Positions 19,651 through 44,324 of a stretch of DNA of 64,000 nt are shown here, in pieces. Below the pieces are notes generated by a model that did not search any database, was not told the DNA's origin, and saw nothing but the letters and a program-made list of their open reading frames with translations. Source of the stretch: an uncultured Actinomycetota bacterium (lineage in GTDB: Bacteria > Actinomycetota > Actinomycetes > Mycobacteriales > Mycobacteriaceae); assembly GCA_963712615.1 (NCBI GenBank), contig CAVQIO010000005.1, forward strand, positions 924-64,923. The letters run 5' to 3'. The translations under genes and the position numbers were made by a program. How positions within the stretch are numbered: position 1 is the first letter of the stretch; every line of letters begins with the position of its first letter.

Positions 19651-19724
19651 ACCGGCCTCCGGCCCGCTTCTCCCCCACGAACCTAACCAGGCTGCGAATT
19701 TTCGTGCGGAATTCCGCAGTACGG

Positions 19725-25791: not shown

Positions 25792-25808
25792 ATGTAATAC
25801 TGTAACGC

Positions 25809-27419
25809 ATGACGCAATCCGAGGCACTTCTTCCGCCGATGAAATGGAACGCGTGGGGAGATCCTGCCAGCGCCAAACCACTCTCCGACGGCATCCGATC
25901 ATTGCTGAAACAGGCTGTCGGACTGGAAGATTCGCAGCACGACGAACTCGCCGCGGACCAGGTACAGCTGCGCCCGTCGGCGCTGTCGAAGGCGGATCGG
26001 GACGCGCTCGCCGGGATCGTGGGCGCCGAGTATTGCCGCACCGACGATCGCGATCGGCTGCTGCACGCGGGCGGCAAGTCCACCCTTGACCTGCTCCGCC
26101 GCAAAGACACCGGCGTACAGGATGCGCCCGACGCCATCCTGCTGCCCGGCGAAGAGGAGGCCGTCGCCGCGATCCTGCAGTACTGCTCCGAGCACCGCAT
26201 CGCCGTGATCCCGTTCGGCGGTGGCACCAATGTCGTCGGCGGTCTCAATCCCACCCGCGGCGACTTTGGCGCTGTCGTCTCCGTTGACCTGCGTCGCTTC
26301 GACCAACTCATCTCGCTCGACGAAGTCTCCGGCCAGGCCGTCCTGGGCGCGGGCCTCACCGGTCCGGACGCAGAACGCCTGCTCGGCGAACGCGGCTTCT
26401 CGCTCGGGCACTTCCCGCAGAGCTTCGAATACGCCACCATCGGCGGTTTCGCCGCGACCCGTTCCTCCGGTCAGGATTCGGCCGGCTACGGCCGGTTCAA
26501 CGACATGGTGCGTGGGCTGCGGATGATTACCCCGGCGGGAACGCTGGACCTGGGCCGCGGACCGGAATCGGCCGCAGGCCCCGATCTGCGGCAGCTGGTG
26601 ATCGGGTCGGAGGGCACCTTCGGCGTCATCACGCAGGTGCGGCTGCGGGTACACCGGGCACCCGAAGCCGTCCGCTACGAAGCCTGGTCGTTTCCCGATT
26701 TCGCGACCGGCGCCGCGGCGCTGCGTGCTGCTACCCAGAATGCGACCGGCCCCACCGTCATTCGGCTCTCCGATGACGTTGAGACCGGGGTCAACCTGGC
26801 CACCACCGAGGCGATCGGCGAAAACCAGATCACCGGCGGCTGCCTGGGCATCACCGTCTTCGAGGGCAGCAAGGACCACGTCGAGAGCCGGTACGCCGAG
26901 ACCAGCGCCCTGCTGACGGCCCAGGGCGGCACGTCGTTGCGCGAAGGTCCCGCCCAGGCCTGGGAGCGCGGCCGGTTCGGCGCGCCGTATCTGCGCGACT
27001 CGCTGCTGGCCGCGGGTGCGCTCTGCGAGACGCTGGAGAGCGCCACCGACTGGTCCAACATCCCGACGCTCAAAGCCGCTGTCACCGAAGCACTCACCAC
27101 CGCGTTGGCAGAAACCGGGACACCGGCGCTGGTGATGTGCCACATTTCGCACGTGTACCCCACCGGCGCGTCGTTGTACTTCACCGTCGTCGCGGGGCAG
27201 CGCGGCAACCCGATCGAGCAATGGCAGACCGCCAAGAAGGCCGCATCCGACGCGATCATCGCCAGCGGCGGCACCATCACCCATCACCACGCGGTCGGCG
27301 CCGACCACCGGCCCTGGATGCGCGACGAAGTGGGCGATCTGGGCGTGCAGGTGTTGCGCGCGGTCAAGGCGACTCTGGATCCGGCGGGAATCCTCAACCC
27401 CGGCAAGCTGATTCCGTGA
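25809..27419 (+). CDS. FAD-linked oxidase (alkyl-DHAP-synthase-like, Rv2251-like)
   Basis: 536 aa with an FAD-binding PCMH-type domain (IPFGGGTNVVGG) and a C-terminal HHHAVGADH motif. Confidence 0.85.
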   Translation: MTQSEALLPPMKWNAWGDPASAKPLSDGIRSLLKQAVGLEDSQHDELAADQVQLRPSALSKADRDALAGIVGAEYCRTDDRDRLLHAGGKSTLDLLRRKDTGVQDAPDAILLPGEEEAVAAILQYCSEHRIAVIPFGGGTNVVGGLNPTRGDFGAVVSVDLRRFDQLISLDEVSGQAVLGAGLTGPDAERLLGERGFSLGHFPQSFEYATIGGFAATRSSGQDSAGYGRFNDMVRGLRMITPAGTLDLGRGPESAAGPDLRQLVIGSEGTFGVITQVRLRVHRAPEAVRYEAWSFPDFATGAAALRAATQNATGPTVIRLSDDVETGVNLATTEAIGENQITGGCLGITVFEGSKDHVESRYAETSALLTAQGGTSLREGPAQAWERGRFGAPYLRDSLLAAGALCETLESATDWSNIPTLKAAVTEALTTALAETGTPALVMCHISHVYPTGASLYFTVVAGQRGNPIEQWQTAKKAASDAIIASGGTITHHHAVGADHRPWMRDEVGDLGVQVLRAVKATLDPAGILNPGKLIP

Positions 27420-28348
27420 CACCCGCGGCAGGGCAACTGCGCCAGCGCGAGATCAGCAAGGTGACCGTGCTGACCAATCCCCTGTCGGGGCACGGCGCCG
27501 CCATCCATGCGGCGCAGGCCGCCATCGCCCGGCTACACGCTCGCGGCGTCGAGGTCGTCGAGATCATCGGCGACGACGCCGAAGACGCCCGTCATCTCGC
27601 GGCCGCCGCTCTCGACCGCGGCACCGACGCGCTGATCGCCACCGGCGGCGACGGCGTCATCTCCAATGCGCTGCAAGTCTTGGCGGGTACCGACGTTCCG
27701 CTGGGCATCATCCCGGCCGGCACCGGCAACGATCACGCACGCGAATTCGGCATTCCCACAAAGTATCCCGAGGCCGCCGCAGATATCGTCGCCGACGGTT
27801 GGACCCAAACGATCGATCTGGGTCGCATCCGCGATGCCAACGGTGTCCACAAGTGGTTCGGCACCGTGGCGGCCACCGGATTCGATTCCCTGGTGACCGA
27901 TCGCGCCAACCGGATGAGCTGGCCGCATGGGCGGCTGCGCTATTACGTCGCGATGCTCGCCGAGCTTTCGCAATTGCGGATGTTGCCGTTTCGCTTGGTG
28001 CTCGACGGCACCAAGGAGATCGACGCCGATATCACGCTGGCGGCCTTCGGAAATACCCGAAGCTATGGCGGCGGGCTGCTGGTCTGCCCCAACGCCGACT
28101 ACACCGACGGCCTGCTCGACATCACCATGGCGCACGGCGCATCCCGGACGAAACTGATCCGGCTGTTTCCGACCGTGCTGAAAGGCACGCACGTCGAGCG
28201 CGACGAAGTGAGCACGGCGCGCGCCACCACGATCCATGTCGAATGCCCCGGTATCAACGTCTACGCCGACGGCGACTTCGCGTGTCCGCTGCCCGCCGAA
28301 CTCTCCGCGGCACCCGGGGCATTGCAGATTCTGCGGGCGGGCCGGTGA
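27416..28348 (+). CDS. dagK: Diacylglycerol/lipid kinase (Rv2252-like)
   Basis: GTG at 27416 overlaps the upstream stop (GTGA). VTVLTNPLSGHG...TGGDGVISNALQ...GIIPAGTGNDHAREFG is collinear with Mtb DagK. Confidence 0.9.
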   Translation: MTPAAGQLRQREISKVTVLTNPLSGHGAAIHAAQAAIARLHARGVEVVEIIGDDAEDARHLAAAALDRGTDALIATGGDGVISNALQVLAGTDVPLGIIPAGTGNDHAREFGIPTKYPEAAADIVADGWTQTIDLGRIRDANGVHKWFGTVAATGFDSLVTDRANRMSWPHGRLRYYVAMLAELSQLRMLPFRLVLDGTKEIDADITLAAFGNTRSYGGGLLVCPNADYTDGLLDITMAHGASRTKLIRLFPTVLKGTHVERDEVSTARATTIHVECPGINVYADGDFACPLPAELSAAPGALQILRAGR

Positions 28349-28359
28349 CGAACTGGGCC

Positions 28360-29625
28360 TTAGATGGTCTGGTGGCGTCCAAAGAATTCGTGGTCTTCGT
28401 TGTAACCACCGTAACCGCTACCGAGCTCGGAGTAGTGCGCCACAAACTCAATTCCCTTGAGCCACTTCACATGCCGGAAGCCGTGCTGTAACTCGTTGCG
28501 CAGCCGCAGTGGCGCCCCGTGCCCGTAGCTCACCGGTTCACCGTTCATGTCGTAGGCCAGCATGGTCAGGTGGTTGTTCATCTGCTCGATCGGGTGCGCG
28601 ACGTAGTAGATCCCGCCGTCGGCGCCGGGGCCCAGGGAGTAGAACACCACCCATTTGGCATCGGGCAGCGGTTGGACGATGTCCATGATCGTTCGCATCG
28701 ACACGCCACCCCATTTGGCGACACCCGACCAGCCCTGGATACAGAAGTGCTGGGTGATCTGTTCGTGGTACGGCAGGTCATGCAACTCGCCCAGCGAGAA
28801 CTCGGTCGGGTGCTCGACGAGGCCGTAGATCCGTAGCCGCCAATCCACGAAGTTGTTCTTCTCCAACTCTTCGTACTCAACGGTTTCCGGGTAGGTGCCG
28901 TTGTGCCAGAAGTAGGGCGAGATGTCTTTCTCGGTGAACGCGCCGGGCTTCGGGTTGGTGTACTCGAACAGCCGCTGCAGCGGCCCGACGAGTGCGTAGC
29001 CGACGCGCTGCACCAGCCGCGGGTGACGAAAGGTGAGCGGGGTGGCGGCCACCCAGCCGACAGCCACCACCACCATGGCCGCCGCGAAGATCCAGAACCC
29101 GACCCAGCTGTTGTCGTCGCGGGCGGCGAACATGTGGTTGAGGTTGCGCAACGCCTCGGTGGCGAAGACCAGCGTCACGTGGACAACGATGAAGAACAGG
29201 AAATAGATCAGCACCAGGAAATGCAGCGAGCGCGCGGCCTGGATGCTCAGCCGCTTGCTGATCACGGTGAGGCGCATCGACAGCGCCGGCGACATCCCCA
29301 GCCCGGTGATGACCGCGAGCGGGGCGGCAATGAAGACGGTGGCGAAGTACGCCAGCAACTGCATCCCGTTATAGGCCACCCACGTGCTATCGGTCGGCCA
29401 GTCCAGCGAAAGGTACTGAATGCCTATCGATACCGCGTTGGGAAACACGTCCCAGCTGGTCGGTACGATGTGGCGCCACTGCCCGGTAGCAAATAACAGG
29501 ACGTAGAAGACCGCGCCGTTGAGCAGCCACAAGACGTCGACGCCGAGGTGCCACCACCGAGCCAGTCCAATGGAATGGCGCAGCCCCGGCAATCCCAACT
29601 GAGCGGGTAGCCCCACCGAATCGTC
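28360..29625 (-). pseudogene. Molybdopterin-dependent oxidoreductase (cytochrome-b-like TM + sulfite-oxidase-family Moco domain), C-terminal part, split by an IS
   Basis: The frame continues upstream of the ORF-track start as ...DDS-VGLPAQLGLPGLRHS. The Moco domain shows HFCIQGWSGVAKWGGV...GAPLRLR. Confidence 0.85.
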
Positions 29626-31099
29626 GAGATATTGTCAAGACCTGTGGATGAGGTTGTTTCAGGCGACCTCCGTTTCGGTTGATTCGCTGGTTTCGGCGGG
29701 TGTGATATCGACGGGGCGTTCGAGCAGTTTGCCTTTGTGGAACACCGCGCCGGCACGGACCAGGGCGACCAAGTGCGGGGCGTTGACGGCCCGCCACCGG
29801 GCCTGCGCGGCGTCGATCAGCTTGTAGGCCATCGCAATTCCCGCGGCGCGGGAGCCGGGCCCCTTGGTGACCTTGGTTCGCAACCGCACGGTCGCAAAGG
29901 TCGACTCGATGGGGTTGGTGGTGCGCAGGTGGATCCAGTGCTCGGCCGGGTACTTGTAGAACTCCAGCAGCACGTCGGCGTCGTCGACGATCTTGGCGAC
30001 CGCCTTGGGATACTTGGCACCGTAATCGACCTCGAAGGCCTTGATCGCGATCTGCGCCTTGTCGATGTCCTCGGCGTTGTAGATCTCCTTGATCGCCGCC
30101 AACGCAGCTGGGTGCGCTGACTTCGGCAGTGCAGCAAGCACATTGGACTGCTTGTGAAACCAACACCGCTGCTCACGCGTGTTCGGGAAGACCTCGCGGA
30201 CCGCCTTCCAGAACCCCAACGCACCGTCACCGACAGCCAGCACCGGGGCTGCCATCCCGCGCCGGCGGCAGCTCCGTAGCAGATCGGCCCACGATTCGGT
30301 CGATTCCCGGTAGCCGTCGGCCAAGGCGACGAGCTCCTTGCAACCATCGGCGCGCACCCCGATCATCACCAACAAACAGAGCTTCTCCTGCTCGAGACGG
30401 ACCTTGAGGTGAATGCCGTCGACCCACAGGTAGACGTAGTCCGTGTCCGAGAGGTCACGGACTTGGAAGGCCTTGGCTTCGTCTTGCCACTGGCTGGTGA
30501 GCCGGGTGATCGTCGTGGCCGAGAGACCCGCACCCGAGCCCAGGAACTGCTCCAACGCCGGACCGAAGTCACTCGTCGACAGGCCATGCAGATACAGCAG
30601 CGGCAGAACCTCGCTCATCTGCGGTGACTTGCGCGCCCACGCTGGCAGGATCGCGGAGGAAAACCTTTGCCGCTCTGCGGTATCGGCATCGACGCGCTTG
30701 TCGTTGACGCGCGGCGCGGTCACCGTGACCGCGCCCGACGCGGTCAACACCTCACGCTCCCGGTGGTAGCCGTTGCGGACCACCAGGCGCCGTCCGTTGT
30801 CGTCGACCTCTCCGGCATGGGCGTCGATGTAGGCGGCCACTTCGGCCTGCAACGCCGCCGCAAGCATCTGTCGGGCGCCGTCGCGGACGATCTCATCGAG
30901 CAACGACCGACCGACACCGTCGTTCTTCTCGTTGGAGCATTCCGCGTCGTGAACTACCGTGAGCATGGGCGTACCTTCCCAACCAGCGCGCCAACGCCGG
31001 TCTTGATCAGAGAACCTTGGACTTCAGATCATCCTCGGGAAGGTGCGCCCACTTTCACACCACCTCGCCAAGGCTCATCCACAGGTTCTGATCATTGCT
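29626..31099 (-). mobile_element. IS256-family insertion sequence (IS1245/IS1311-like by recollection), apparently intact
   Basis: Imperfect ~26-bp terminal inverted repeats (..tcaagacctgtggatgag / ctcatccacaggttctga..), flanked by the direct repeat ccgaatcgtc at 29616-29625 and 31100-31109. Confidence 0.85.
29659..30966 (-). CDS. IS256-family transposase
   Basis: 435 aa uninterrupted ORF: LLDEIVRDGARQMLAAALQAEVAAYI...YLWVDGIHLKVR...GDGALGFWKA...RCWFHK...NPIESTFATVRLR. Confidence 0.9.
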   Translation of the reverse strand: MLTVVHDAECSNEKNDGVGRSLLDEIVRDGARQMLAAALQAEVAAYIDAHAGEVDDNGRRLVVRNGYHREREVLTASGAVTVTAPRVNDKRVDADTAERQRFSSAILPAWARKSPQMSEVLPLLYLHGLSTSDFGPALEQFLGSGAGLSATTITRLTSQWQDEAKAFQVRDLSDTDYVYLWVDGIHLKVRLEQEKLCLLVMIGVRADGCKELVALADGYRESTESWADLLRSCRRRGMAAPVLAVGDGALGFWKAVREVFPNTREQRCWFHKQSNVLAALPKSAHPAALAAIKEIYNAEDIDKAQIAIKAFEVDYGAKYPKAVAKIVDDADVLLEFYKYPAEHWIHLRTTNPIESTFATVRLRTKVTKGPGSRAAGIAMAYKLIDAAQARWRAVNAPHLVALVRAGAVFHKGKLLERPVDITPAETSESTETEVA

Positions 31100-31607
31100 C
31101 CGAATCGTCCTTGGCCGTCCACAGCGGGTCGTCCGGGACGGGCTTGGCCACCCTGAGCCACTCGTCCTTGCCGGGCGTCGCGTTGCGACTGAAGTAGAGC
31201 CGCGGATGATCGCAGAGGATCTGTATCCCGGACCGGATGATGAACGTCATCAAAAACAGGTTGAAAAAGTGGGCCCACCCGATCCAGGCGGGGATGCCCG
31301 GGCTGGCCCCGGCGGGCACCACGGTACCCGGATGACGCTGAATGAATGCCTGCACCGACGGCATATTGTGCAGGCCTTTGCCCACGGCCACCGCCGCTAC
31401 AAGTACGGCGAATCCAATGGGAATCAGCCACAGCAGGTTGAACCACTTGTCCCGGCCTACCCGCAGTCGGGGCGCAATAGCCCGCTTGTCCTCTAGCCCG
31501 CCGGCCCACGTCTCGGGGTCGACGATGTCTTCAGCAAGGCACAGCTCGGTGCGATACTCCGGGCCACTACTTTGGGCCTGCCGGGCGTCGAGTTGATGGT
31601 CGGCCAT
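31100..31607 (-). pseudogene. Molybdopterin-dependent oxidoreductase, N-terminal part (upstream of the IS insertion)
   Basis: MADHQLD...FNLFLMTFIIRSGIQIL...DPLWTAKDDS. The reading frame rejoins the 28360-29625 fragment once the IS and one repeat copy are removed. Confidence 0.85.
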
Positions 31608-31646
31608 GCCGTCTCGGACCTACTTAATTTTTACAAACCTGCTTGT

Positions 31647-32135
31647 CTAAACTCTAGCGCATAACGTACCTGATCGGGAAGGGTCACGACGGGTGACTCG
31701 GCCCACCGCGTCTACAGACCGAGCACTTCCGCTTCGGCAGCGACCGCCCGCCAGTAGGTCGCCGGGTCTAGTTACGAGGCGTCGCTGCTTGTGGTCGAGT
31801 AATCCACCCACGTTGGTGATCTCAGCAACGAGGGCCCCGTCGGCGTGGCGCAGTTCCTGCTCGACGCGGAAAGTCTTCCCATCACCCCACATGTAGGTGC
31901 AGGAGACATCGATCTCTTCGCCGGCACGCACCTCACGGTGGAAGCGAATACGCTCCTCCAGGCTTACCGGGCTAACTCCCGACGCCAACAGGTCCGATGG
32001 GTCGACGCCGGCGGCGCGGACGCACTCGAATCGGGCGTGCTGACCGTACTGCAGAAGCACCGTACCCGCGGCGTGGCCGTTGAAGTCCACCTCGAAACCG
32101 CGCACCGCGACCCGGACGCTGAAGACCTCAGACAT
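31647..32135 (-). CDS. Hotdog-fold acyl-CoA thioesterase (4HBT/YbgC-like); C-terminal tail atypical
   Basis: VAVRGFEVDFNGHAAGTVLLQYGQHARFE...RIRFHREVRAGEEIDV is a typical 4HBT core. The last ~45 aa are Arg/Ser-rich and may be out of frame. Confidence 0.65.
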   Translation of the reverse strand: MSEVFSVRVAVRGFEVDFNGHAAGTVLLQYGQHARFECVRAAGVDPSDLLASGVSPVSLEERIRFHREVRAGEEIDVSCTYMWGDGKTFRVEQELRHADGALVAEITNVGGLLDHKQRRLVTRPGDLLAGGRCRSGSARSVDAVGRVTRRDPSRSGTLCARV

Positions 32136-32193
32136 CGCGTTCCTCCTGCTTGGCTACCCACTGGCGCGACCGTTCAGTGACGTAGCGGCGGCC

Positions 32194-32259
32194 GTGGTCA
32201 AGTCCAGGGACGTGGTGTACGAGCTAGTGGTCAAGTCCAGGGACGTGGTGTACGAGCTA
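32194..32259. repeat. Perfect 33-bp tandem duplication spanning the flank/IS-end junction
   Basis: gtggtcaagtccagggacgtggtgtacgagcta occurs twice in tandem (32194-32226, 32227-32259). Each unit contains the IS terminal motif gtggtgtacgag. Confidence 0.95.
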
Positions 32260-33637
32260 GTCGTGTGATTCTCCGAGGTTTGGTTCAGGCGGTCAGTGCC
32301 GCGGGGGTGTCCTCCTGTTCAGTCGGTGAGTTCTGATCTGCTCGGGATTTGCTGAGGACGTCGAGGCCGAGGTAGCGCCGGGATTCGGCCCATTCGTCGT
32401 GTTGTTCGGCCAGCACGGCACCGACGAGGCGGATCAGCGCGTTGCGGTCGGGGAAGATGCCGACGACGTCGGTGCGGCGGCGGATCTCCTTGTTGAGGCG
32501 TTCCTGGGGGTTGTTCGACCAGATCTGGCGCCAGATCTGCTTGGGGAAGTTGGTGAACGCCAGCAGATCCGGTCGGGCCGCCTCTCGGTGATCGGCGACC
32601 TTGGGGAGCTGGTCCGATAGTGCGTCGGTGATCCGATCATACTGAGCAGCAACCGATTCCGCATCGGGTTGGTCGAACACCGAATGCAACAGGGTACACA
32701 CCCACGGCCACGAACTCTTGGGAGTCTTCGCCATCAGGTTGGTCGTGTAGTGGGTTCTGCACCGCTGCCAGGTAGCTCCGGGCAGAGTCGCGCCTAGCGC
32801 AGCCACCAGCCCGGCGTGCGCGTCGGAGGTGACCAGCCGTACCCCGGACAGGCCCCGGGCCGTCAGCGACCGCCAGAGCGCCAACCACCCGGCGCCGTCC
32901 TCAGCGGTGCTGACGTCGATGCCCAGGATTTCGCGGTATCCCTCGGCGTTGACCCCGACCGCGATCAGGGCGTGCACGTTGACCACCCGCCCGGCTTCGC
33001 GGACCTTGAGCACCAGGGCGTCGGCGGCGACGAACGTGTACGGGCCGGCGTCCAGCGGCCGGCTCCGGAACGCCTCGACCGCGACGTCGAGCTCCTTGGC
33101 CATCACGCTGACTTCAGACTTCGACAAGCTGGTGATGCCCAACGTCTCGACGAGCTTGTCCATCCGCCGGGTAGACACCCCGAGTAGGTAGCAGGTAGCG
33201 ACCACGGTGGTCAGGGCCCGCTCGGCCCGTTTGCGGCGTTCCAGCAGCCAGTCCGGGAAGTAGCAACCCTGCCGTAGCTTGGGAATCGCCAGATCCAATG
33301 ATCCTGTGCGGGTACGAATTGGCGATGACGGTAGCCGTTTCGCTGATTGATGCGCTCGCTACTGCGTTCACCGTATCCGGCGCCGCACAGGGCGTCGGCC
33401 TCCGCACCCATCAGGGTGTGGATGAACGTCGACAACAGTTCGCGCAGCACGTCGGGGTGGGTGGTGGTGAGTCGTTCGGCCAGCACGGCAGGCAGGTCGA
33501 TATTGTGGGCAGTGGTCATCGCGTTGATTCCTTTGCTCGAGTGACTTTGGTCGGTCTGTCGAAGAATCACGCGATGACCTTCAATCATTCGGCTACGACA
33601 CGCCGGTACCGCTAATCAGGTCCGACTCGTACACCAC
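32245..33637 (-). mobile_element. IS256-family (IS1081-like) element, copy B, full length
   Basis: Terminal inverted repeats gtggtgtacgag (32245-32256) and ctcgtacaccac (33626-33637). The interior equals copy A plus the 3' part that copy A lacks. Confidence 0.85.
32285..33519 (-). pseudogene. IS256-family transposase with the same 1-nt deletion frameshift as copy A
   Basis: The N-terminal ORF (..NGYRHRQF) and main ORF (LDLAIPKLRQG...) are out of frame at ~33312-33318. The C-terminus LNKEIRRRTDVVGIFPDRNALIRLVGAVLAEQHDEW is intact. Confidence 0.85.
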
Positions 33638-33884
33638 CTAGATGGACGCAACCGCGGCCGTCGTCGCGACTCTCGATCCACTGCCCGCGTGCCCAACCGC
33701 CGGCCGCTTGTGGCGCCATCCCGTGTTTGCGGAACAACGCACTCGCCTCGGCGCGGCTCAGGCCGCGCTCACCCCACTCACGCAATATCGCCAATTCGCG
33801 GTGGCCCTCGGCATAAGCAATCGTTGGCGATTGCAAAGAAATGTGCCGGCGCCGACCCACCGTTTTTCTCTCGCACTCCCCCAT
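33612..33884 (-). CDS. Hypothetical small protein; 3' end runs into the IS copy B terminus
   Basis: 90-aa ORF divergent from the PucR-like gene. Its last ~8 codons are IS-derived. No family recognised. Confidence 0.3.
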   Translation of the reverse strand: MGECERKTVGRRRHISLQSPTIAYAEGHRELAILREWGERGLSRAEASALFRKHGMAPQAAGGWARGQWIESRDDGRGCVHLGGVRVGPD

Positions 33885-33945
33885 TCAATGGAACCCACTT
33901 GATTTCTGATTACGCTGGCGATCAGTTCGGGATTGGGAGCGGCTC

Positions 33946-35468
33946 GTGATCACTTTGGACCGCATGGTGAACGTGCTGGGTAGCTATGGGGTCCGCCTGC
34001 GTTGGTCCTCGGTGCCAAGGTCGACTGAACTGCGCAGCGTAGCGATCCACGAGGCTGCCGGCCGTCGCCCCGTGGTGGGCGATGTATTGCTGGCAATTGG
34101 TGCTGGCTCGCTCAGAGAAGCGGTGCAATGGGCGGCGTCGGCGAGTGCTGTGGTGGTGTTGACGCGCGACGGTGCGGAGCCGACAGCGTTCGACGGTGAC
34201 ACCGGGGCTGGCGCGGTGATGGTGGTCGACGAGACGCTGTCGTGGAGCGAGCTGGCCGCGGTGGTCTACGGGCTGGTACTCGAAGGCCGCGAGACGGAGG
34301 CGGGCCGTGGTCCCACCGATCTGTTCGCGCTGGCGGACAGTCTGGCCGAGGCCATCGGCGGCGCACTAGTCATCCACGATCGACTGTTGCGCGTGCTGGC
34401 GTATTCGAGGCAGCAGCAGCACGCCGACGCTGCGCGGGTGGCGACAATCCTGGAACGACAGACACCGGAACAGCTGCACGCGTTGTTCGAGGCCCGCGGA
34501 GTCTTCGCCCACTTGGCGGTCTCCGACGAACCACTGTTCGTCCCCGCGGAAGCCGAACAAGGCATGAACGGGCGCATGGTGGCGGCGGTGCGCTCGGGAC
34601 GAGAACTCATCGGGTCGGTGTGGGTTGCGTGCTCGGCGCCACTGGAAGGCGCCGCTCTCCACGCCTTGGCCGATGGCACCCATACGGTGGCCCTGCATCT
34701 GCTGCGATCACGAGCCAGCGCCGACCTCGAGCGCCAGATCGAATCCGAATTGGTGATCCGGTTGTTGGAGGGCACCGCTGACGCCGCCACCGTGGCCAGC
34801 AGACTCGGCCTGTCGCACAGCGGGTTGAGGGTGATCGCACTCCAAGCGTTCACCGGCGCAGAACGCGACGCCCCTCTTCTGTTGGCGTTCGAGCGTGCCA
34901 CCACCGGGTTCGGTTGGTCACGTCCGGGCCGCAGCGCCTTGCGGGCAACACCGTATACACCGTGCTTCCCGGCGACGAGGTAGCGACGGCGCGACGCTGG
35001 ATCACCGGTTTGCGGGCAGCCATACCCGAACAGGTCACGGTGTTGGCCGGCATCAGCGGGGCGGCCACGGTGACGGAACTCGCGGCCGCCCGCCACGAGG
35101 CCGACGAGTGCCTGGCGCTACATGAGGTGACGTCTCGGCCCACACCTCCTGCCTACGACGAGTCATGGGATGAAATCCTGCTGCAGCGGTTGCGCACCGC
35201 GTCACGATCAGGTCGGTCCTCAAACCGTGGACCGGTGGCCGAGCTGCGCCGCCACGACCGCGCCAACGAGACCGACTACGTGGCGACATTGCGGGCCTGG
35301 CTGGAGGCCCAGGGCGACCCGGCCGAGGCCGGTCGGTGTTTGGGAGTACACGAAAACACCGTGCGCTACCGGCTACGCAAGATGACCGAGATCACCAGCC
35401 TGCCGTTGGATGACGCCAGAAAGCGGCTGGCCATGATGATTGAACTTGCGGCGACAGACCACGACTAA
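33946..35468 (+). pseudogene. PucR/CdaR-family transcriptional regulator with one frameshift
   Basis: ORFs 33946-34983 and 34914-35468 join near 34905-34916. C-terminal HTH GVHENTVRYRLRKMTEIT. Confidence 0.75.
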
Positions 35469-35588
35469 CCATCGGCGCTGTCGAAAGTCAACAAAGCAGC
35501 ACGCCGCCATTGTCGAATTTCCGCAAAACTTACCGGGCAACCCACGCGAAAATGAAGCCATAGCGACCCGTCGATAGGAAATGGCCCG

Positions 35589-36236
35589 ATGACTACCCCA
35601 CATCCCGCTTTTCAGCGGCCTCCGGATCCGCCGGAGGAGGACAGCGCTTCGGACACCTTCACCGTGCGCTTGCCGCGGTGGCGATTTGCGCGGTTGTTTA
35701 GCCTCAACCCACTAGTACGCATGAGCGATCGGGTCGAGGCACTGGTTGTGGTGCTGGCCATGGCGGTGGCGCTCGCTGCCGTGCCGATCGCGGCCGCCGT
35801 GGGCACTTCGGTGTACGACTCCCGCAGCCGCCTCTACGCCGAGCAGGCCCAGAACAGTCGCGTGGAATCCGCGACAATCACCGACCACAAGGTCATCCAC
35901 CGTGAATCGTTAGGCCCGATGGTCACCGTAATTGGCCAATGGTCGGCTGCCGGAAACGAACATACCGGCCCGGTCTCGGCGCCTCCAGGAGTCAAAACTG
36001 GTGAGTCGATTGACATTTGGGTAGGTAAAGACGGTTCGCATGTCGGCCCGCCACCGAAGACCGCTTACGACGAGGCGGTGGCATTCGCAGCAGTGACCTG
36101 GGTGGGCTTGGCCCTCGCGGCAGGCGCATTGGTCGCCGGTACCCGCGCTGCCCTTAACCGGGCCCGCCACGCGCGATGGGAAGATGACTTGGGCAAGCTC
36201 ACCGGCGACCGCGACGGGCACACCGGCCGGCCTTAA
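35589..36236 (+). CDS. Rv1733c-family two-TM membrane protein
   Basis: FSLNPLVRMSDRVEALVVVLAMAV...YDSRSRLYAEQAQ...GESIDIWV...ALNRARHARWEDDL parallels Mtb Rv1733c as I recall it. Confidence 0.7.
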   Translation: MTTPHPAFQRPPDPPEEDSASDTFTVRLPRWRFARLFSLNPLVRMSDRVEALVVVLAMAVALAAVPIAAAVGTSVYDSRSRLYAEQAQNSRVESATITDHKVIHRESLGPMVTVIGQWSAAGNEHTGPVSAPPGVKTGESIDIWVGKDGSHVGPPPKTAYDEAVAFAAVTWVGLALAAGALVAGTRAALNRARHARWEDDLGKLTGDRDGHTGRP

Positions 36237-36282
36237 AGATCTGCCCGAATCACCCGCTTCAGGCCCCGTAGACTCCGGCGGC

Positions 36283-36927
36283 ATGGCGGATGTTCCGCTC
36301 GACACGCAAGAGCGCCTTGCGCTGTGTGATCTCCTCGACGAGCTCGGTCCGTCCGTTCCCACGCTAATCGAGGGCTGGACTGCTCACGATCTCGCCGCCC
36401 ACATCGTGTTGCGCGAACGCGATCTCGTTGCCGGCCCTTGCCTCGTTCTACCTGCTTCCTTCCAGCGGTTCGCCGAGCGGCGCAGGGCCAGATTGGCCGA
36501 GAGCAAAGAATTCGCGTGGCTCGTCGCGCGGATCCGGTCCGGCCCACCGATCGGGTTCTTCCGCATTGGATGGGTCCGCTCAGTCCCGAATCTCAACGAG
36601 TTCTTTGTTCACCACGAGGATGTTCGCCGCGCGAATAGGCATGGGCCCCGGAGCCTTACGCCTGCAATGGATGCTGCCTTGTGGCGAAACGTTCGGGGCG
36701 GCGGCCACTACCTGAGTCGCCGACTCAAGGCTTGCGGGCTCGAGATTGAGTGGGCCGGAACCGACGAGCGGGTGACGGTGCGACCAGGCCGGCCGACGGC
36801 TCGACTCAGCGGTGCGCCGGGCGAGCTCCTGCTCTACGTTTTTGGGCGCCAGGACGCAGCGCGGGTCGAGGTGAGCGGACCACCGGAGGCCGATGCGGCG
36901 GTGCGTCGCACACACTTCGGCATGTGA
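36283..36927 (+). CDS. DinB/mycothiol-maleylpyruvate-isomerase N-terminal-domain protein (TIGR03085-like)
   Basis: ERLALCDLLDELGP...GWTAHDLAAHIVLRE...FFVHHEDVRRAN is typical of this actinobacterial family. Confidence 0.7.
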   Translation: MADVPLDTQERLALCDLLDELGPSVPTLIEGWTAHDLAAHIVLRERDLVAGPCLVLPASFQRFAERRRARLAESKEFAWLVARIRSGPPIGFFRIGWVRSVPNLNEFFVHHEDVRRANRHGPRSLTPAMDAALWRNVRGGGHYLSRRLKACGLEIEWAGTDERVTVRPGRPTARLSGAPGELLLYVFGRQDAARVEVSGPPEADAAVRRTHFGM

Positions 36928-37037
36928 GTCCTTCGCTGGCTTGGCTCTGAAGGCGTTGTCGGAAGCCGACAAGAGCCCACTGCGGCATTGTCCGGTGAGG
37001 GCAAGCGGTCAGGCAGTCCCCCACGGCACCATGGGAA

Positions 37038-38336
37038 TTGATAACTAAAGCTCAGCTACGGAGGTATGTGATGGTCGGCATCGAGAAGATTGACGGCGGA
37101 CCGCGGTCGGTGATCGTGGTCGGTGCCGGCATCGTCGGATTGTCGACGGCGTGGTTCCTACAGGAACGCGGAGTCGACGTCACGGTGGTGGACCGCACCG
37201 GCGTGGCCGCCGGCGCCTCCTGGGGCAACGGCGGGTTGATCGCCCCAGGGCTGACCCTCCCGCTGAACTCCCCGGCGGTGCTGCGCCATGCGCTTCGCTC
37301 CGGGTGGGATCCGACCGCCCCCTTGCACATCCCGTTGATCGCCGACGCGGGACTCCGGGCCTTCCTGATTCAGTTCGCCGCCAACTGCCGGCGATCGTCG
37401 TGGAAGCGGGCGATGCGGGCCAATGTAGCCCTGAACGAGGAATGCCTCGAAGCCTTCGACGTGCTCGCCGCCAACGGGGTCGATGTGCCGATCACCGACG
37501 CACCGATCACCGCGGTGTTTCGTACCACCGAGGAGACGGAACGCATGCTGACGGAGCTACGCGAGCTCGAAAAGGCCGGCCAGACAATGCATGTCACCGC
37601 GTTGTCCGGCGAGGCGCTACGCGAACAAGTACCCCTGGCCTCGCCGGCGGTCACCGCCGGGCTGAACATCAACGCGCAGCGCTTCGTCGACCCGCAACGA
37701 TTCGTGGAGGCCCTGGGCCGCTCAGTGGTGGTCCGCGGGGCAACGATCCACAGGCTGGAAATCCGCGACATACTCACCTCGGGCAGCGGCGTTGCGGTGT
37801 ACCCGCGCAACGGAAAACCGCTCACCGCGGACGCCGCGGTGAGCGCCACCGGCGCACGGTTATCGCGGCTGGCGGACCGCTGGCTGCGCGTCCCGGTGCA
37901 GGCCGGTCACGGCTACTCGTTTACCGTGCCCGTGGACCGCCCGATACCTACCCCCATCTACCTGCCGGACGCGCGGGTGGCGTGCACGCCCTACAAGGGC
38001 GCAATCCGTGTTTCAGGCACCATGGAATTCCGCCACCTCCCTGAGCGGGTCATACCAGAGCGGGTGGAGACCATCGTCGCCTCGGCCGGTCCCTTGTTGG
38101 ACGGGGCGCGCTGGGCCGAGCGCAGCAACGTGTGGGTTGGCGCCTACCCGGTCACCCCCGATGGCCGTGCCCTGATCGGCGAAGTATCACCGGGCGTCTA
38201 CGTGGCGGGCGGACACGGCATGTGGGGATTGGCGCACGGCCCAATCACCGGGCGGCTGTTGGCCGAACAGATCACGACCGGCAAGCAACCCCAAGCCCTG
38301 CGCGAGTTCGATCCGCTGCGCAGGAGCGGCCGCTAG
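37038..38336 (+). CDS. FAD-dependent oxidoreductase (D-amino-acid dehydrogenase/DadA-like)
   Basis: VIVVGAGIVGLSTAWFLQERG dinucleotide fold; C-terminal GGHGMWGLAHGPITGRLLAE. The start could instead be 37071. Confidence 0.8.
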   Translation: MITKAQLRRYVMVGIEKIDGGPRSVIVVGAGIVGLSTAWFLQERGVDVTVVDRTGVAAGASWGNGGLIAPGLTLPLNSPAVLRHALRSGWDPTAPLHIPLIADAGLRAFLIQFAANCRRSSWKRAMRANVALNEECLEAFDVLAANGVDVPITDAPITAVFRTTEETERMLTELRELEKAGQTMHVTALSGEALREQVPLASPAVTAGLNINAQRFVDPQRFVEALGRSVVVRGATIHRLEIRDILTSGSGVAVYPRNGKPLTADAAVSATGARLSRLADRWLRVPVQAGHGYSFTVPVDRPIPTPIYLPDARVACTPYKGAIRVSGTMEFRHLPERVIPERVETIVASAGPLLDGARWAERSNVWVGAYPVTPDGRALIGEVSPGVYVAGGHGMWGLAHGPITGRLLAEQITTGKQPQALREFDPLRRSGR

Positions 38337-38397
38337 CGCTCCCGATAGCCGCGAATCCAAAGCGCGGCGAACTCTCGCCCACCACGGGCTCCGCGTT

Positions 38398-38434
38398 GCC
38401 AGGGGCGGTTGCTGTGCTCCGGTCCGCCCCTGGC
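38398..38434 (+). other. Perfect 11-bp-stem hairpin between the DadA-like and GreA-like genes
   Basis: gccaggggcgg (38398-38408) pairs with ccgcccctggc (38424-38434) around a 15-nt loop. There is no U-tract. Confidence 0.6.
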
Positions 38435-38464
38435 GACACCCTCATCGACACGAAAGGCATCAAA

Positions 38465-39079
38465 ATGACTAACACGCAACGTATCTGGATGACACGACAG
38501 GAATACGCTCGACTGCACAATGAACTTGCCGCGCTGCGCTCGCGGCGCAGTATCGAAGTTCCCGACGACTTCATGGATTACGACGCGAATCTCACCGCGG
38601 GCTACTCAGCGCGACGAGCACGCATCCGCGAGATTCAGGATCTGCTGACCAACGTAGTCGTGAGTGAGGACGCCGTCGGCGGCGGCATCGCCGAACCGGG
38701 CATGGTTCTTACCATCCGCTACGACGCCACCGGTGAGACCGAAACCTTCCTGCTCGGTCGGCGTTTCGGCGAGGGCGCCGATGTCACGGTCTACTCGACG
38801 CTGTCGCCGCTGGGCCACGCGATCGCGGGCGCACGTCCTGGCGACCAGCGCATCTACTCCATCCCCAATGAAACGCGCCCCCTGCTCGTGACACTCCTAG
38901 AGGCCGTGCCCTCCGGAATACACGTTGCGAAAAGCCCTGGGCCGCAGTCTCCCCAGCGCGACGCAACGGTGACCGCCGGGTACCAAAGACCACAACAACA
39001 GACAGCGGCCGGAATGAAACGCGCGCCTACGACAAGCGTCGCGCCGCGGCGGGTCGTGACGACCGCGGGCGCATCATGA
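38465..39079 (+). CDS. GreA/Rnk-like transcription factor paralogue 1 with a basic/Gln-rich tail
   Basis: N-terminal coiled coil MTNTQRIWMTRQEYARLHNELAAL; C-terminal Gre domain GIAEPGMVLTIRYDATGETETFLLG...LSPLGHAIAGARPGD. Confidence 0.75.
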   Translation: MTNTQRIWMTRQEYARLHNELAALRSRRSIEVPDDFMDYDANLTAGYSARRARIREIQDLLTNVVVSEDAVGGGIAEPGMVLTIRYDATGETETFLLGRRFGEGADVTVYSTLSPLGHAIAGARPGDQRIYSIPNETRPLLVTLLEAVPSGIHVAKSPGPQSPQRDATVTAGYQRPQQQTAAGMKRAPTTSVAPRRVVTTAGAS

Positions 39080-39090
39080 AAGGCACAGAC

Positions 39091-39573
39091 ATGAACAGCG
39101 CGCAACGCGTGTGGATCTCGCCGCAAGCCTACGAGCGGCTACAAAGGGAGTTGGCCACGCTTCGTGAGTTGTGTACCGCCGCAGCCGCCGGCGATACCGA
39201 CGAAAACAGTTACGCTCTCCAACAATGGTGGCAGGCGCGGATTCAACAGATTCATGATCTGTTGCTCAATGCCGTGGTTGGCGAGGACCCACCCGACGAC
39301 GGGATCGCCGAACCCGGAATGGTTTTGACCATCCGCTACGACGACACCGGGGACATCGAAACCTTCCTACTGGGTGTGCGCGGCGCCGAATACGGCGACA
39401 TAGAGGTCTACTCCATCCAATCCCCGCTGGGCGCCGCGATTGCAGGCGCACGCCCCGGCGAACGACGGACCTACTTGCTGCCCAGTGGCGCCGCACTCAC
39501 GGTCACGCTCCTCGACGCCGTGCCCCATGGCATTCACGCGCGGGCGCGGCGACGCAGGGGGGCGATCGCATGA
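39091..39573 (+). CDS. GreA/Rnk-like transcription factor paralogue 2 (alternative start 39076 overlapping the upstream stop)
   Basis: MNSAQRVWISPQAYERLQRELATL...GIAEPGMVLTIRYDDTGDIETFLLG...QSPLGAAIAGARPGE is collinear with paralogue 1. Confidence 0.75.
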   Translation: MNSAQRVWISPQAYERLQRELATLRELCTAAAAGDTDENSYALQQWWQARIQQIHDLLLNAVVGEDPPDDGIAEPGMVLTIRYDDTGDIETFLLGVRGAEYGDIEVYSIQSPLGAAIAGARPGERRTYLLPSGAALTVTLLDAVPHGIHARARRRRGAIA

Positions 39574-39662
39574 TGTATGACCTCATCGACCCGGTCGCGA
39601 TGATATTTCTCCTGGTTGCGGTGTTGGGCCTCTTCGTCGCCGTCGCATATGGGCGAAAATAA
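39570..39662 (+). CDS. 30-aa hydrophobic micropeptide ORF (below the ORF-track cutoff)
   Basis: MMYDLIDPVAMIFLLVAVLGLFVAVAYGRK. Its ATG overlaps the GreA-like stop (ATGA). One predicted TM helix. Uses rare A/T-ending codons. Confidence 0.35.
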   Translation: MMYDLIDPVAMIFLLVAVLGLFVAVAYGRK

Positions 39663-39679
39663 GCACCTATGACCGCAAA

Positions 39680-39852
39680 TTAGTCGATGCCGCCGCTCCG
39701 GCGAACCCGCCAGTCCTTTGATGGTCGCGACGCGCTGCGCCCGGCTCCGCCTCTTCCCCACCGTGATCAAAGGCACTCACGTCGAGCTCGACGACGTTCG
39801 ATATGCCGGTATCCGCCGCCCCGGCGAACCCGCCGGTCGTATAACCGTCTAG
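39680..39852 (+). pseudogene. Relic of the 3' end of a dagK-like lipid kinase gene
   Basis: 39748-39798 translate to RLFPTVIKGTHVELDDV, against DagK RLFPTVLKGTHVERDEV (28160-28210): 14/17 aa and 40/51 nt identical, with differences mostly at third positions. The relic's stop TAG is at 39850-39852. Confidence 0.75.
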
Positions 39853-40361
39853 CCGACACCCCGGTTGAGCCAGGTCAATTCGCCGGCGTCGCCACCGTCG
39901 CGATACACCTCGAGCGCCTCGTCCCACGCCGTTCCCAGCACGGAGTCCATCTCGGCGGCCAGCGTGTCGACACCTTGCGCCATCATCGACCGCAGCCGCA
40001 TCTCGCCGACCATGATGTCGCCGTTGGCACTCATCGCCCCGCTCCACAAGCCCAGTTGCGGGGTGTGGCTGAATCGGAAACCGTCGACTCCGGGGCTCGG
40101 ATCCTCAGTGACCTCGAACCGCAGCACCGACCAGGACCGCAGCGCGTTGGCCAACCGGGCACCGGTACCCACCGGACCGCACCAGTTCGTGACGGCACGC
40201 AGCTGCCCGGGCATCGCCGGCTGCGGTGTCCAGACCAGGTTGGCCTTGGACTGCAGGGTCGACGACAACGCCCACTCGACATGCGGGCATACCGCCGCGG
40301 GCGAGGCGTGGACATACACCACACCAGCCGTGCCGTCGGCGAATTGATTCGTCGCACGCAT
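39849..40361 (-). CDS. DUF3145-family protein (Rv2256c-like)
   Basis: 170 aa from MRATNQFADGTAGVVYVHASPAAVCPHVEWAL...; position relative to the Rv2257c-Rv2260 orthologues matches Mtb. Confidence 0.75.
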   Translation of the reverse strand: MRATNQFADGTAGVVYVHASPAAVCPHVEWALSSTLQSKANLVWTPQPAMPGQLRAVTNWCGPVGTGARLANALRSWSVLRFEVTEDPSPGVDGFRFSHTPQLGLWSGAMSANGDIMVGEMRLRSMMAQGVDTLAAEMDSVLGTAWDEALEVYRDGGDAGELTWLNRGVG

Positions 40362-40508
40362 ATTGTTGCTCCTTCGGTTCCACGAGGGACGTCTTCCCCA
40401 ACGACCTGGTGAACCCGACGAGCGGCATGCTCGCATCAAATTTTGTGTCTTGCGTGTCTATTGTGCCCTGTGATGCCTATGTTGCGCTAGTGTGCATTTT
40501 CCTTAAAA

Positions 40509-41321: not shown

Positions 41322-41334
41322 CAGGTCGGGCGCG

Positions 41335-42390: not shown

Positions 42391-42472
42391 CACGCCCACG
42401 GACGCTACACGCCGGCCCGTGGGTGGACGGGCCAGCAACTGATGTATGGCGGCGAACAGTAGGTTAGAACCC

Positions 42473-44181: not shown

Positions 44182-44217
44182 CCCCGTCACACGCGTCCCA
44201 CAAATTAGGCGAGACAC

Positions 44218-44314: not shown

Positions 44315-44324
44315 CCCGCATCCC

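Follow-up and report, generated by a model that had tools for sequence, protein, structure and literature searches.

A leftover piece of dagK at the right edge of an 11.5 kb patchwork in an environmental Mycobacterium

Gene content between dagK and DUF3145

The window, by which we mean the whole 64-kb stretch of DNA that was analysed, comes from an environmental Mycobacterium and carries, between dagK and the convergent DUF3145 gene, an 11.5 kb patchwork whose right edge is marked by a leftover piece of dagK (Table 1). Relatives show the ancestral order to be dagK, a promoter-like motif, an Rv2253-family gene and then, on the opposite strand, DUF3145. In 40 of 78 loci dagK is directly convergent on DUF3145 within 150 nt, an arrangement that the earlier note had proposed to look for, and the gap measures 150-900 nt in 16 further loci, mostly with just the Rv2253-family gene inside. 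Positions 28339-39845 are missing from the relative L001. The view that a dagK fragment marks the far edge of an island absent from relatives is thus upheld, and island DNA adjoins DUF3145 in none of 80 loci (species representatives).

The closest relative, L164, matches the window at 23706-29625, 31100-31683 and 39798-47384; its share of the island is the first 1.9 kb only, and between its matched segments lies an intact 171-aa Rv2253-family gene and no relic. On the far side of this module L164 retains the native last 15 nt of dagK (CTGCGGGCCGTGTAA), a remnant that has the same sequence as the end of dagK in L001 and leads into the native intergenic motif, with an overlap of 5-8 nt, CTGCG(GGC). 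The island as one unit occurs at the same site in 0 of the 80 species representatives. In an independent assembly, L081 (Logan SRR28061255), window positions 37374-40408 recur with 2 mismatches over 3035 nt, which shows that the arrangement around the relic is not an assembly artefact.

Table 1. Features of the dagK-DUF3145 interval, in window coordinates
Feature	Coordinates	Strand	Evidence
Resident dagK (Rv2252-type diacylglycerol kinase), intact	27416..28348	+	Pfam DAGK_cat and YegS_C; NCBIfam NF008882, 569 bits
Relic-homologous segment of resident dagK, codons ~335-358	28139..28209	+	blastn, tblastn, alignment
Left junction: new dagK tail GGGCCGGTGA plus 8 nt	28339..28356		Matches neither L001 nor the homologues of the Mo-oxidoreductase source
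Layer 1a: Mo-oxidoreductase gene, 418 aa, cytochrome b561-like and Oxidored_molyb domains	28357..29625	-	Pfam; common to L164
IS256-family element 1 (IS666-like), 10-nt target duplication CCGAATCGTC	29626..31099	-	Pfam Transposase_mut, inverted repeats
Layer 1b: 171-aa gene upstream of the Mo-oxidoreductase gene, with its upstream region	31100..31683	-	L164 homology ends at 31683
Layer 2: acyl-CoA thioesterase block, resuming at 33655-33813 beyond element 2	31712..32200	-	Pfam 4HBT_2
IS256-family element 2	32201..33654	-	Pfam; uninterrupted homologues L169/L170
Layer 2: PucR-family regulator pseudogene and Rv1733c-like gene	33900..36237	+	Pfam HTH_30; 80.6% nt to L082/L083
Layer 2: DAO-family oxidoreductase and two GreA/GreB-like genes	36952..39540	+	Pfam; 91% nt to L082/L083
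Layer 2: 30-aa membrane-peptide ORF (39570-39662)	39542..39672	+	Last L082/L083-homologous sequence
Rv2253-family 3' end, copy 1: VDAAAPANPPVL, stop TGA 39719-39721	39674..39721	+	Sequence comparison
dagK relic: internal fragment encoding ATRCARLRLFPTVIKGTHVELDDV, core 39746-39797	39727..39797	+	blastn, tblastn, alignment
Rv2253-family 3' end, copy 2: DMPVSAAPANPPVV, stop TAA 39842-39844	39798..39844	+	Native; collinear with L164, L165 and L167 from 39798
DUF3145 gene (Rv2256c-like), convergent, stop codon 39849-39851	39849..40361	-	Pfam PF11343, E 9e-68

The island is built of blocks with different relatives

The island is not one event, because L164 has just the first 1.9 kb of it: it comprises at least five blocks with different relatives, acquired in at least two steps. 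The Mo-oxidoreductase gene is 82-91% identical at the nucleotide level to metagenome loci L084-L092, with homology stopping at 28357, and it is collinear with L164 at 93.6%, an identity that falls to 89.4% across the module in a trend that is suggestive only. In 79 of 80 loci it is paired with the 171-aa gene, and the thioesterase gene is their neighbour in 0 of 80. The thioesterase block is instead 87.5% identical in nucleotide sequence to L169/L170, where it is uninterrupted and sits in its own context, and the cluster running from PucR through the GreA-like genes to the 30-aa ORF occupies a different locus in L082/L083, where PucR is intact (507 aa); homology to that cluster ends at 39672. 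A DinB-like gene also belongs to layer 2. Some 8 kb, comprising the thioesterase block, the PucR-GreA cluster and the relic block, are specific to the window lineage, and the block-to-block junctions have 2-4 nt of shared sequence.

The two IS256-family elements are later simple insertions, as judged from target duplication and from uninterrupted homologues in relatives. Element 1, which has plasmid matches at 84-89% and is absent from L164, lies between the Mo-oxidoreductase gene and the upstream 171-aa gene with a 10-nt target duplication, and so does not split the Mo-oxidoreductase gene as had been described. At the left end of element 2 (32194-32259) there is a perfect 33-nt tandem duplication. 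A composite IS256-family transposon was considered and rejected: both elements are internal, each splits sequence that is contiguous in relatives, and element 1 has its own 10-nt duplication.

The relic is an internal dagK piece between two Rv2253-family gene ends

By blastn, the sole non-self dagK match in the window pairs 39746-39797 with 28158-28209 (43/52 nt, 82.7%, E 5.7e-9), and tblastn lengthens it to 39727-39807 (27 aa, 63%, E 4e-5). Aligned with dagK of relatives, a comparison that had been suggested earlier, the 52 nt match in 78 of 80 related loci at 79-92% identity. The earlier note had described 39680-39852 as a decayed second dagK 3' end. Its dagK homology stands, and so does the core match, exactly at 14/17 residues and, on recount, at 41/51 rather than 40/51 nt; the nucleotide changes are indeed mostly third-position (8 of the 10 differences from resident dagK over the 51-nt stretch). 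The dagK-derived part amounts to ~71 nt (39727-39797), covers just codons ~335-358 of a 403-codon ORF and stops 137 nt, or 45 codons, short of the dagK stop, and we therefore reject its identification as a DagK C-terminus and stop.

What had been read as indels and an in-frame TAG around the core is instead two Rv2253-family 3' ends (Table 1): by comparison with relatives, the sequences flanking the relic are 3' ends of an Rv2253-family surface protein gene. On the right, DMPVSAAPANPPVV matches the C-terminus of the L002 protein at 14 of 14 residues (window 39800-39841), and that protein belongs to the Rv2253 family (NF052301, 231 bits, cutoff 150). On the left, 39683-39721 encode a degraded Rv2253-family gene end, VDAAAPANPPVL and stop, in a copy that has lost 9 nt in frame and whose tail, TTTGATGGT, is L040-like. 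Together the two copies form a 37-nt direct repeat with 81% identity and 123 nt spacing.

The resident alleles of the window and L164 are identical at 50 of 52 positions of the relic core. Since the relic carries the consensus base at each of the five sites at which this resident allele is derived, an outcome whose chance under random decay is estimated at ~1e-4, it is not a recent duplicate of resident dagK, as had been argued before. The relic-specific core changes relative to the inferred ancestor fall at third codon positions in 4 of 4 cases. The dagK piece would come from a non-resident allele, and would therefore be of foreign origin or else have been copied long before the split from L164. 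L050 (48/52) and L004 (47/52) match the core best, but by no significant margin over many other loci, and assignment to a lineage is weak because 52-71 nt survive and the stretch is oddly variable between close relatives: the relic-homologous part of resident dagK is 80% identical to L001, versus 94% in the flanks. Another orphan dagK 3' remnant is present in L076.

A local replication error could in principle produce such a composite, if a polymerase at the end of the Rv2253-family gene switched template to codons 335-358 of the genome's own dagK and then back ~50 nt upstream. The product would be a templated insertion of 123 nt with a short duplication on its flanks, since decayed in place. 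This would account for a 37-50-nt direct repeat around a 71-nt piece of a gene then <1-3 kb away, for the 2-4 nt shared at junctions and for the similar divergence of both repeat pairs (17-19%). However, the Rv2253-DUF3145 junctions of L164, L165 and L167 are clean and without insertion, and the relic lacks all five derived bases already present in the resident allele of the common ancestor with L164; the error must therefore predate those changes and have been lost precisely in several lineages. The third-position changes in the core, relative to both the inferred ancestor and the resident gene, are also unlike neutral decay, and we consider this explanation quite unlikely.

The resident dagK 3' end and the case against site-specific integration

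Comparison with relatives indicates that the resident dagK 3' end was vertically inherited, because 28213-28338 match L001 at 94.3% up to 10 nt before the stop and because the nearest neighbours are alike in every dagK segment (L164, then L001, then L167/L165); no allele switch in dagK or upstream was detected in this comparison. Collinearity with L001 extends to 28338, and with L164 it covers the whole gene. Its final ~10 nt, including the TGA stop, are unlike the native tail of relatives, and the left junction is identical in L164 and the window. The suggestion that the relic is the old resident allele is accordingly not shown by these data, the resident end itself being the vertical one.

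An element that targets gene 3' ends and carries its own dagK 3' end had also been proposed; a mobile or integrative element would have inserted into the end of dagK with a replacement end, leaving the relic as the displaced original, attR-like allele. A dagK-derived direct repeat does lie on both island sides, dagK remains whole although the insertion lies 10 nt ahead of its stop, the insert having contributed a stop codon of its own, and L076 too holds an orphan dagK 3' remnant. Yet the geometry is not that of attL and attR, in that neither repeat directly adjoins an island end: the left homologue lies 130 nt inside dagK from the junction at 28339, and on the right Rv2253 copy 1 stands between the homologue and the last island block, whose end is at 39672. 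Because of this and the vertical resident 3' end, which matches L001 to within 10 nt of the stop, att-type integration is not supported. The repeated piece is moreover internal and not a gene terminus, and the island is a patchwork of at least five blocks, acquired in two or more steps.

A Pfam scan of all large ORFs in 25.8-42.5 kb found no integrase or recombinase in or beside the island, in agreement with the earlier note, and just two Transposase_mut genes, those of the secondary IS256-family insertions. No tRNA or RNA structure was found at the island, and megablast against 72,556 plasmids matched just the two IS256-family elements. The integrative-element reading is already largely refuted, and we regard it as highly improbable.

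Discussion

We propose, with a probability of roughly 55%, that chromosomal DNA of other mycobacterial loci or lineages makes up 28339-39797 as a layered patchwork, the scar of multi-step illegitimate recombination, in which the relic is the composite right-end junction. The patchwork most likely built up at a hypervariable spot between the convergent dagK and DUF3145 genes, and the dagK leftover is most likely an ordinary recombination scar rather than a trace left by an element that moves and targets gene ends. Mosaic recombination, the other option that had been raised for this locus, is the better of the two.

In a first step, common to L164, the 1.9-kb Mo-oxidoreductase module would have inserted 10 nt before the dagK stop, bringing a new stop codon and thereby leaving dagK intact, and would have displaced the native last 15 nt of the gene to its far side with a 5-8-nt overlap. 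In a second step, confined to the window lineage, ~8 kb may have taken the place of this displaced dagK tail along with the promoter-like motif and ~470 nt from the start of the Rv2253-family gene. This DNA would have comprised the thioesterase block, the PucR-Rv1733c block, the DinB-like gene, the DAO-GreA-GreA block and the 30-aa ORF, with a second Rv2253-family 3' end and the 71-nt internal dagK piece at its right end, in non-native order and derived from a dagK/Rv2253 locus; the junctions linking these pieces to the native Rv2253-family 3' end would share only 2-4 nt. In a third step the two IS256-family elements presumably inserted and PucR decayed. We infer that the mechanism was not site-specific integration but an illegitimate process at the level of microhomology, either end joining or template switching, in the course of uptake or repair.

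Several observations stand against this best explanation. The order of events is inferred from just two lineages, and the left breakpoint of the second step (31683/31684) is the exact right end of the first, a coincidence unless the junction is recombinogenic. The junction between the Rv2253 stop and dagK codon 335 would be expected from a tandem duplication or a circularised fragment, not from plain end joining. Among the loci compared, no donor with the same arrangement was found, and the lineage of the dagK piece is weakly assigned.

A different account is a single duplicative integration followed by independent erosion. Here a donor fragment that began at dagK codon ~335, spanned the whole island and finished at the Rv2253-family stop would have circularised, thereby creating the junction of that stop with codon 335, and entered by one homologous crossover of Campbell type in the conserved dagK 3' region; a tandem duplication of the span would be an equivalent route. 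Downstream of the island the ancestor would then have had a second, full dagK 3' end. Later the window would have deleted dagK codon ~358 to Rv2253 codon -15, and L164 would have lost everything from 31684 to a point 15 nt short of the displaced dagK stop. Such a history accounts for the non-native piece order and the circle-type junction, for the non-resident relic allele, for the divergence of copy 1 (81% identity with copy 2, and an L040-like tail), for the TGA-type new resident dagK tail, which resembles the L018/L028 dagK ends, and for the retention by sister lineages of different pieces of the displaced dagK 3' end. The sequence at 28253-28281 hardly varies between species, which would favour a crossover on the right-hand side of the relic segment. 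However, the L164 remnant begins exactly where the match between resident dagK and L001 ends, with an 8-nt overlap (CTGCGGGC), and such an exact start and overlap are predicted by simple insertion, not by an arbitrary deletion endpoint. The duplicative account further needs a donor with the whole patchwork at the same locus, of which none was found, and ~216 nt of homology at ~85% is a poor recombination substrate. We therefore hold it to be doubtful.

Integrative elements that insert into gene 3' ends leave attL/attR duplications, classically at tRNA or tmRNA genes, as in mycobacteriophage L5-type integration and genomic islands. The present locus is like them in having part of a gene 3' region on both island sides and a target gene kept intact by an insert-supplied end, here just the last ~3 codons and the stop. 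It is unlike them in having no integrase or tRNA, repeats off the island ends, an internal repeated piece, a native resident 3' end and an island built in at least two steps.

The layered patchwork that we favour has closer parallels in illegitimate and homology-facilitated illegitimate recombination and in Ku/LigD end joining, which are routes of foreign DNA into bacterial chromosomes. As in these, the junctions are without mobile-element ends and share 2-4 nt, gene fragments remain as scars, and native sequence is replaced and not merely interrupted; the locus differs in that no homologous anchor is demonstrable and, from simple end joining, in that the junction has a duplication and a reordered piece. 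FoSTeS/MMBIR-type templated insertions arise by microhomology-mediated template switching, and they resemble the relic block in placing a short piece of a nearby gene between two copies of a ~40-50-nt duplication with few-base junctions; unlike them, the copied piece here is not the resident allele, and sister genomes are without it. Finally, distributive conjugal transfer in mycobacteria yields mosaic genomes by swapping homologous segments, and the island likewise holds mycobacterial chromosomal DNA of another lineage without phage or plasmid hallmarks, but that process alone neither reorders pieces nor stacks unrelated blocks, as seen here.

Setting and architecture of the dagK-DUF3145 interval

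The host is placed in Mycobacterium, in the M. montefiorense / Aquia_213 neighbourhood, and its DagK protein is 92-93% identical to those of M. montefiorense and Aquia_213 and 95% identical to one from an ENA contig. The gene order is that of M. tuberculosis Rv2251-Rv2258c, with additional DNA lying between dagK and the convergent DUF3145 gene. Exact-protein look-ups of DUF3145 (two start codons) and of the long GreA ORF returned no record, and literature searches on Rv2252/Rv2253 and on homology-facilitated illegitimate recombination yielded nothing specific to this locus.

Features of the dagK-DUF3145 interval and its flanks, in listed order
Feature	Window positions	Remarks
FAD-linked oxidase	25809-27419	
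dagK (resident)	27416-28348	
DNA other than the conserved gene order		11.5 kb, between dagK and DUF3145
Layer 1 (Mo-oxidoreductase gene and 171-aa gene)	28357-29625, 31100-31683	
First IS256-family element	29626-31099	
Layer 1 / layer 2 junction	31683/31684	GGGAAGGGTCACGACGGG
Second IS256-family element	32201-33654	
DinB/MDMPI-like gene	36184-36927	
Two GreA/GreB-like genes	38132-39573	
Rv2253-family 3' end, copy 1	39674-39721	VDAAAPANPPVL then stop
Rv2253 stop / dagK codon 335 junction		CCTTTGATGGTCGCGACGCGC
dagK piece	39727-39797	
dagK / Rv2253 copy 2 junction		GAGCTCGACGACGTTCGATATGCC
Rv2253-family 3' end, copy 2	39798-39844	DMPVSAAPANPPVV then stop
DUF3145	39849-40361	minus strand
Beta-lactamase-like gene		after DUF3145
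Rv2258c-like methyltransferase		after beta-lactamase-like gene

A reordered fragment at the far edge of the island

The earlier note had reported dagK-like sequence at the far edge of the island, and this is borne out. Searched by blastn against the whole window, dagK gives a single non-self match, 39746-39797 to 28158-28209 (43/52 nt, E 5.7e-9), which tblastn lengthens to 39727-39807; since the same 52 nt also match the dagK gene in 78 of 80 related loci, at 79-92%, the homology is real. Chance similarity is ruled out by the E value of 6e-9 together with these orthologue matches, and an assembly artefact by L081, an independent short-read assembly (Logan SRR28061255) that reproduces window 37374-40408 with two mismatches (99.93% identity).

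The fragment is not, as had been supposed, a decayed DagK C-terminus. Only ~71 nt derive from dagK, corresponding to codons ~335-358, and homology stops 45 codons short of the dagK stop. What follows encodes the last 14 residues of a protein that a related locus, L002, carries between dagK and DUF3145, and that belongs to the Rv2253 family (NF052301, 231 bits); once it is read in this way, the in-frame TAG noted beyond the core has no meaning. Shortly before the dagK piece comes a second, degraded copy of this Rv2253-family gene end, whose stop codon occupies 39719-39721. Because Rv2253-family ends flank that piece on both sides, the block reads: Rv2253 3' end copy 1, TGGT, internal dagK piece, Rv2253 3' end copy 2, DUF3145 stop.

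The CCGGCGAACCCGCCGG hairpin in this block was considered as a dispersed REP-like repeat or terminator and rejected, as it has only two copies in the 64-kb window, both of them Rv2253-family coding remnants. Its folding does not exceed that of shuffled sequence (z = 0.48), a search for terminator-like sites came up empty, and an Rfam search of the block matched no family.

Ancestry of the resident dagK and of the relic

The resident dagK 3' end had been suspected of arriving with the island; it did not. Positions 28213-28338 are 94.3% identical to L001, a related locus, the same as upstream, and the nearest neighbours rank L164 > L001 > L167/L165 in every dagK segment and in the upstream gene. 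Neither sliding identity to L001 nor per-segment neighbour ranking revealed a sustained recombination breakpoint inside dagK, and novelty is limited to its final ~10 nt.

At the core, the resident allele of the window and that of L164, the closest relative found, agree at 50/52 positions, so this allele predates their split. The relic differs from it at 8-9 core positions, almost all of them third codon positions, and wherever the window/L164 allele is derived, at five sites in all, it matches the consensus base of other mycobacteria. Random decay of a resident copy would be expected to give about 0.26 right-base changes at derived sites, and we estimate the probability of at least four such sites at near 1e-4. 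Because of these consensus bases, and because the Rv2253-DUF3145 junctions of L164, L165 and L167 are clean, the relic is no recent copy of the resident gene. It either arrived as foreign DNA with the ~8-kb block that adjoins it (layer 2) or is an old copy requiring several precise losses. A stretch of 52-71 nt is too short to name a donor lineage: the best match, L050, agrees at 48/52 positions and many others at 44-47.

Within the resident gene, the most protein-conserved stretch (28133-28212, RLFPTV.KGTHV) has a nucleotide identity of 80% to L001 and 77.5% to L165, with flanks at 90-94%. This divergence is far above expectation for such close relatives, and short-patch conversion or lineage-specific codon changes are possible causes.

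Probable stepwise growth of the island

L164 (key INTERMEDIATE), a 55-kb ENA contig, matches the window at 23706-29625 (93.6%), 31100-31683 (89.4%) and 39798-47384 (90.9%). The left junction of the Mo-oxidoreductase module is exactly alike in the two, with the dagK stop followed by ~8 nt and then the Mo-oxidoreductase gene stop; L164 is without IS elements and without the remaining 8 kb of the island. On the right side of the module, the L164 sequence continues with CTGCGGGCCGTGTAA, which matches the native end of dagK in L001 exactly, then the native intergenic motif TGTAACAACTCG...CGACATC, an intact Rv2253-family gene of 171 aa, and DUF3145. The resident dagK match to L001 ends at ...CTGCGGGC (28338) and the displaced tail of L164 begins at CTGCGGGCC, an overlap that suggests a simple insertion 10 nt ahead of the dagK stop, with a 5-8-nt target duplication and a stop supplied by the insert. 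Since the insert supplies a new stop codon, dagK, an essential-looking flanking gene, has stayed intact throughout. The idea that an insertion displaced the old dagK 3' end thus holds in a limited sense in L164; the displaced piece is 15 nt long, is absent from the window, and is not the relic. Across the dagK tail and junction, 6/29 positions differ between window 28339-28367 and L164 10920-10948 in a region otherwise 93-98% identical, which suggests relaxed constraint or repeated change.

Beyond the part shared with L164, the island is confined to the window lineage and is in turn a patchwork. The Mo-oxidoreductase gene is paired with its 171-aa partner in 79 of 80 metagenome loci. We rejected the thioesterase as a natural neighbour of this module, an arrangement seen in 0/80 loci; because the two never adjoin, the boundary between layers 1 and 2 is a real junction. 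The thioesterase block has a context of its own in two further loci, L169 and L170, where the sequence split by the second IS element is contiguous. In L082 and L083, a conserved cluster found at another locus has the order PucR-Rv1733c-DAO-GreA-GreA-STAS-30-aa-ORF. The window copy is 80-91% identical to it, with homology ending at 39672; by comparison it is missing the STAS-domain gene, which in L082 and L083 separates the second GreA-like gene from the 30-aa ORF, and contains an additional DinB/MDMPI-like gene. The first IS element has a 10-nt target duplication and is missing from L164 and from all Mo-oxidoreductase homologues. A plasmid origin of the island was rejected, as a plasmid search matched only the two IS elements.

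In a metagenome contig (Ga0134125_10002057; L090 3110-10674), the PucR-Rv1733c-DAO-GreA cluster lies ~1.3 kb from the Mo-oxidoreductase module, in a relative orientation opposite to that in the window. These two blocks may share a common source neighbourhood in some mycobacteria. The adjacent GreA/GreB-like genes of the window are paralogues (~72% nt), and L082 holds the whole DAO-GreA-GreA cluster twice (7977-10489 and 18392-20489).

A hypervariable intergenic spot

We compared 80 loci around DUF3145 from species-representative genomes. dagK is convergent on DUF3145 in all 80, two of them partial cases, and the window's island DNA was absent from every one. The gap is <150 nt in 40/78 loci, 150-900 nt in 16 (with an Rv2253-family gene as nearly constant content) and 0.9-7.9 kb, with varied content, in 22; with gap size and content differing so widely, the spot is hypervariable. 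L001 aligns to window 23706-28338 and 39846-41351, and everything between is missing from it.

The Rv2253-family gene has undergone repeated loss or decay among relatives. In L001 (reverse complement, 4713-4790) a clean deletion runs from just past the ribosome-binding site up to the last 9 nt; in L004 a remnant of 37 residues persists; and the copies in L012 and L016 are fragmentary, as tblastn recovers the protein only in part, and a full-length ORF was not found in L016. A conserved motif, TGTAAC-N18-CGAC[A/T]TC, lies just downstream of dagK and upstream of every Rv2253-family gene (seen in L001-L003, L010, L012, L016, L018, L020, L022, L025, L026, L028, L035, L040, L044, L164, L165 and L167). 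L001 keeps it despite deletion of the gene; the window has lost it (0 matches at up to 3 mismatches). In pattern it is like an ECF-sigma promoter, such as that of M. tuberculosis SigD, whose consensus is GTAACG-N17-CGAT.

In L076 (MAG nzgw95), a further lineage whose dagK 3' end has been displaced or truncated here, an orphan remnant of the last 35 codons and stop (18386-18490) sits directly 3' of an unrelated gene's stop, 7.8 kb from DUF3145; the next 2 kb beyond it contain no dagK 5' part or Rv2251 homologue.

Origin of the scar

The similarity and the island described in the earlier note are real, and the mechanism it proposed is mostly unsupported: no integrase or tRNA was found in the island and the resident 3' end is native, which does not support an att-type integrative element at the dagK 3' end. 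The feature amounts to an ordinary recombination scar, if a well-resolved one, in a variable spot between two genes. We infer that the junction of the Rv2253 stop with dagK codon 335 is the one that would result if the span from dagK codon 335 to the Rv2253 stop were duplicated in tandem or circularised as a fragment; that of dagK codon 358 with Rv2253 codon -15 has the look of a deletion of ~690 nt. The junctions share 2-4 nt.

We favor a stepwise history in which layer 1 would have entered by simple insertion, and layer 2 would then have taken the place of the dagK tail, the motif and most of the Rv2253-family gene, its end bringing short reordered pieces of a foreign dagK/Rv2253 locus. Two points favor it: a simple insertion would leave just the 8-nt overlap seen in L164, and the relatives differ from one block to the next. 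Its cost is one coincidence of breakpoints, since layer 2 must start on the left exactly where layer 1 ends on the right. An alternative that also fits is one Campbell-type (duplicative) integration of a donor fragment, after which the window and L164 lost different parts by deletion. It too needs a coincidence, namely that the deletion in L164 stops exactly at the point where native sequence ends in the resident dagK.

The main value lies in annotation and method: the dagK-like fragment should not be taken as an att site or as the sign of an element targeting gene ends, nor the island as having been acquired in one event. Set beside L164, the window shows with unusual clarity how unrelated chromosomal blocks stack, step by step, at one mycobacterial intergenic spot. 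A broader and, in our judgment, improbable idea is that the final ~70 dagK codons serve repeatedly as a docking site that needs no integrase, where circularised or broken pieces of chromosome carrying a dagK 3' segment recombine in the near-invariant INVYADGDFACPLP-coding block and duplicate the 3' end, which deletions later erode. If true, it would explain why three lineages (the window, L164 and L076) have displaced pieces of the dagK 3' end and why the interval has 0-8 kb of variable content in about a quarter of species, and the synonymous hypervariability of codons 335-358 between closely related genomes would reflect conversion from ectopic copies. If real, such a hotspot would point to island growth in mycobacteria by homology or repair, with no need of an integrase.

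Two smaller observations concern the IS elements. Window 31002-31075 matches the actinobacterial sRNA family Ms_AS-8 in Rfam (81.5 bits, E 7e-16), inside an IS256-family element and in antisense orientation to the beginning of its transposase gene. At 32194-32259, a perfect 33-nt tandem duplication includes the left terminal inverted repeat of the second element.
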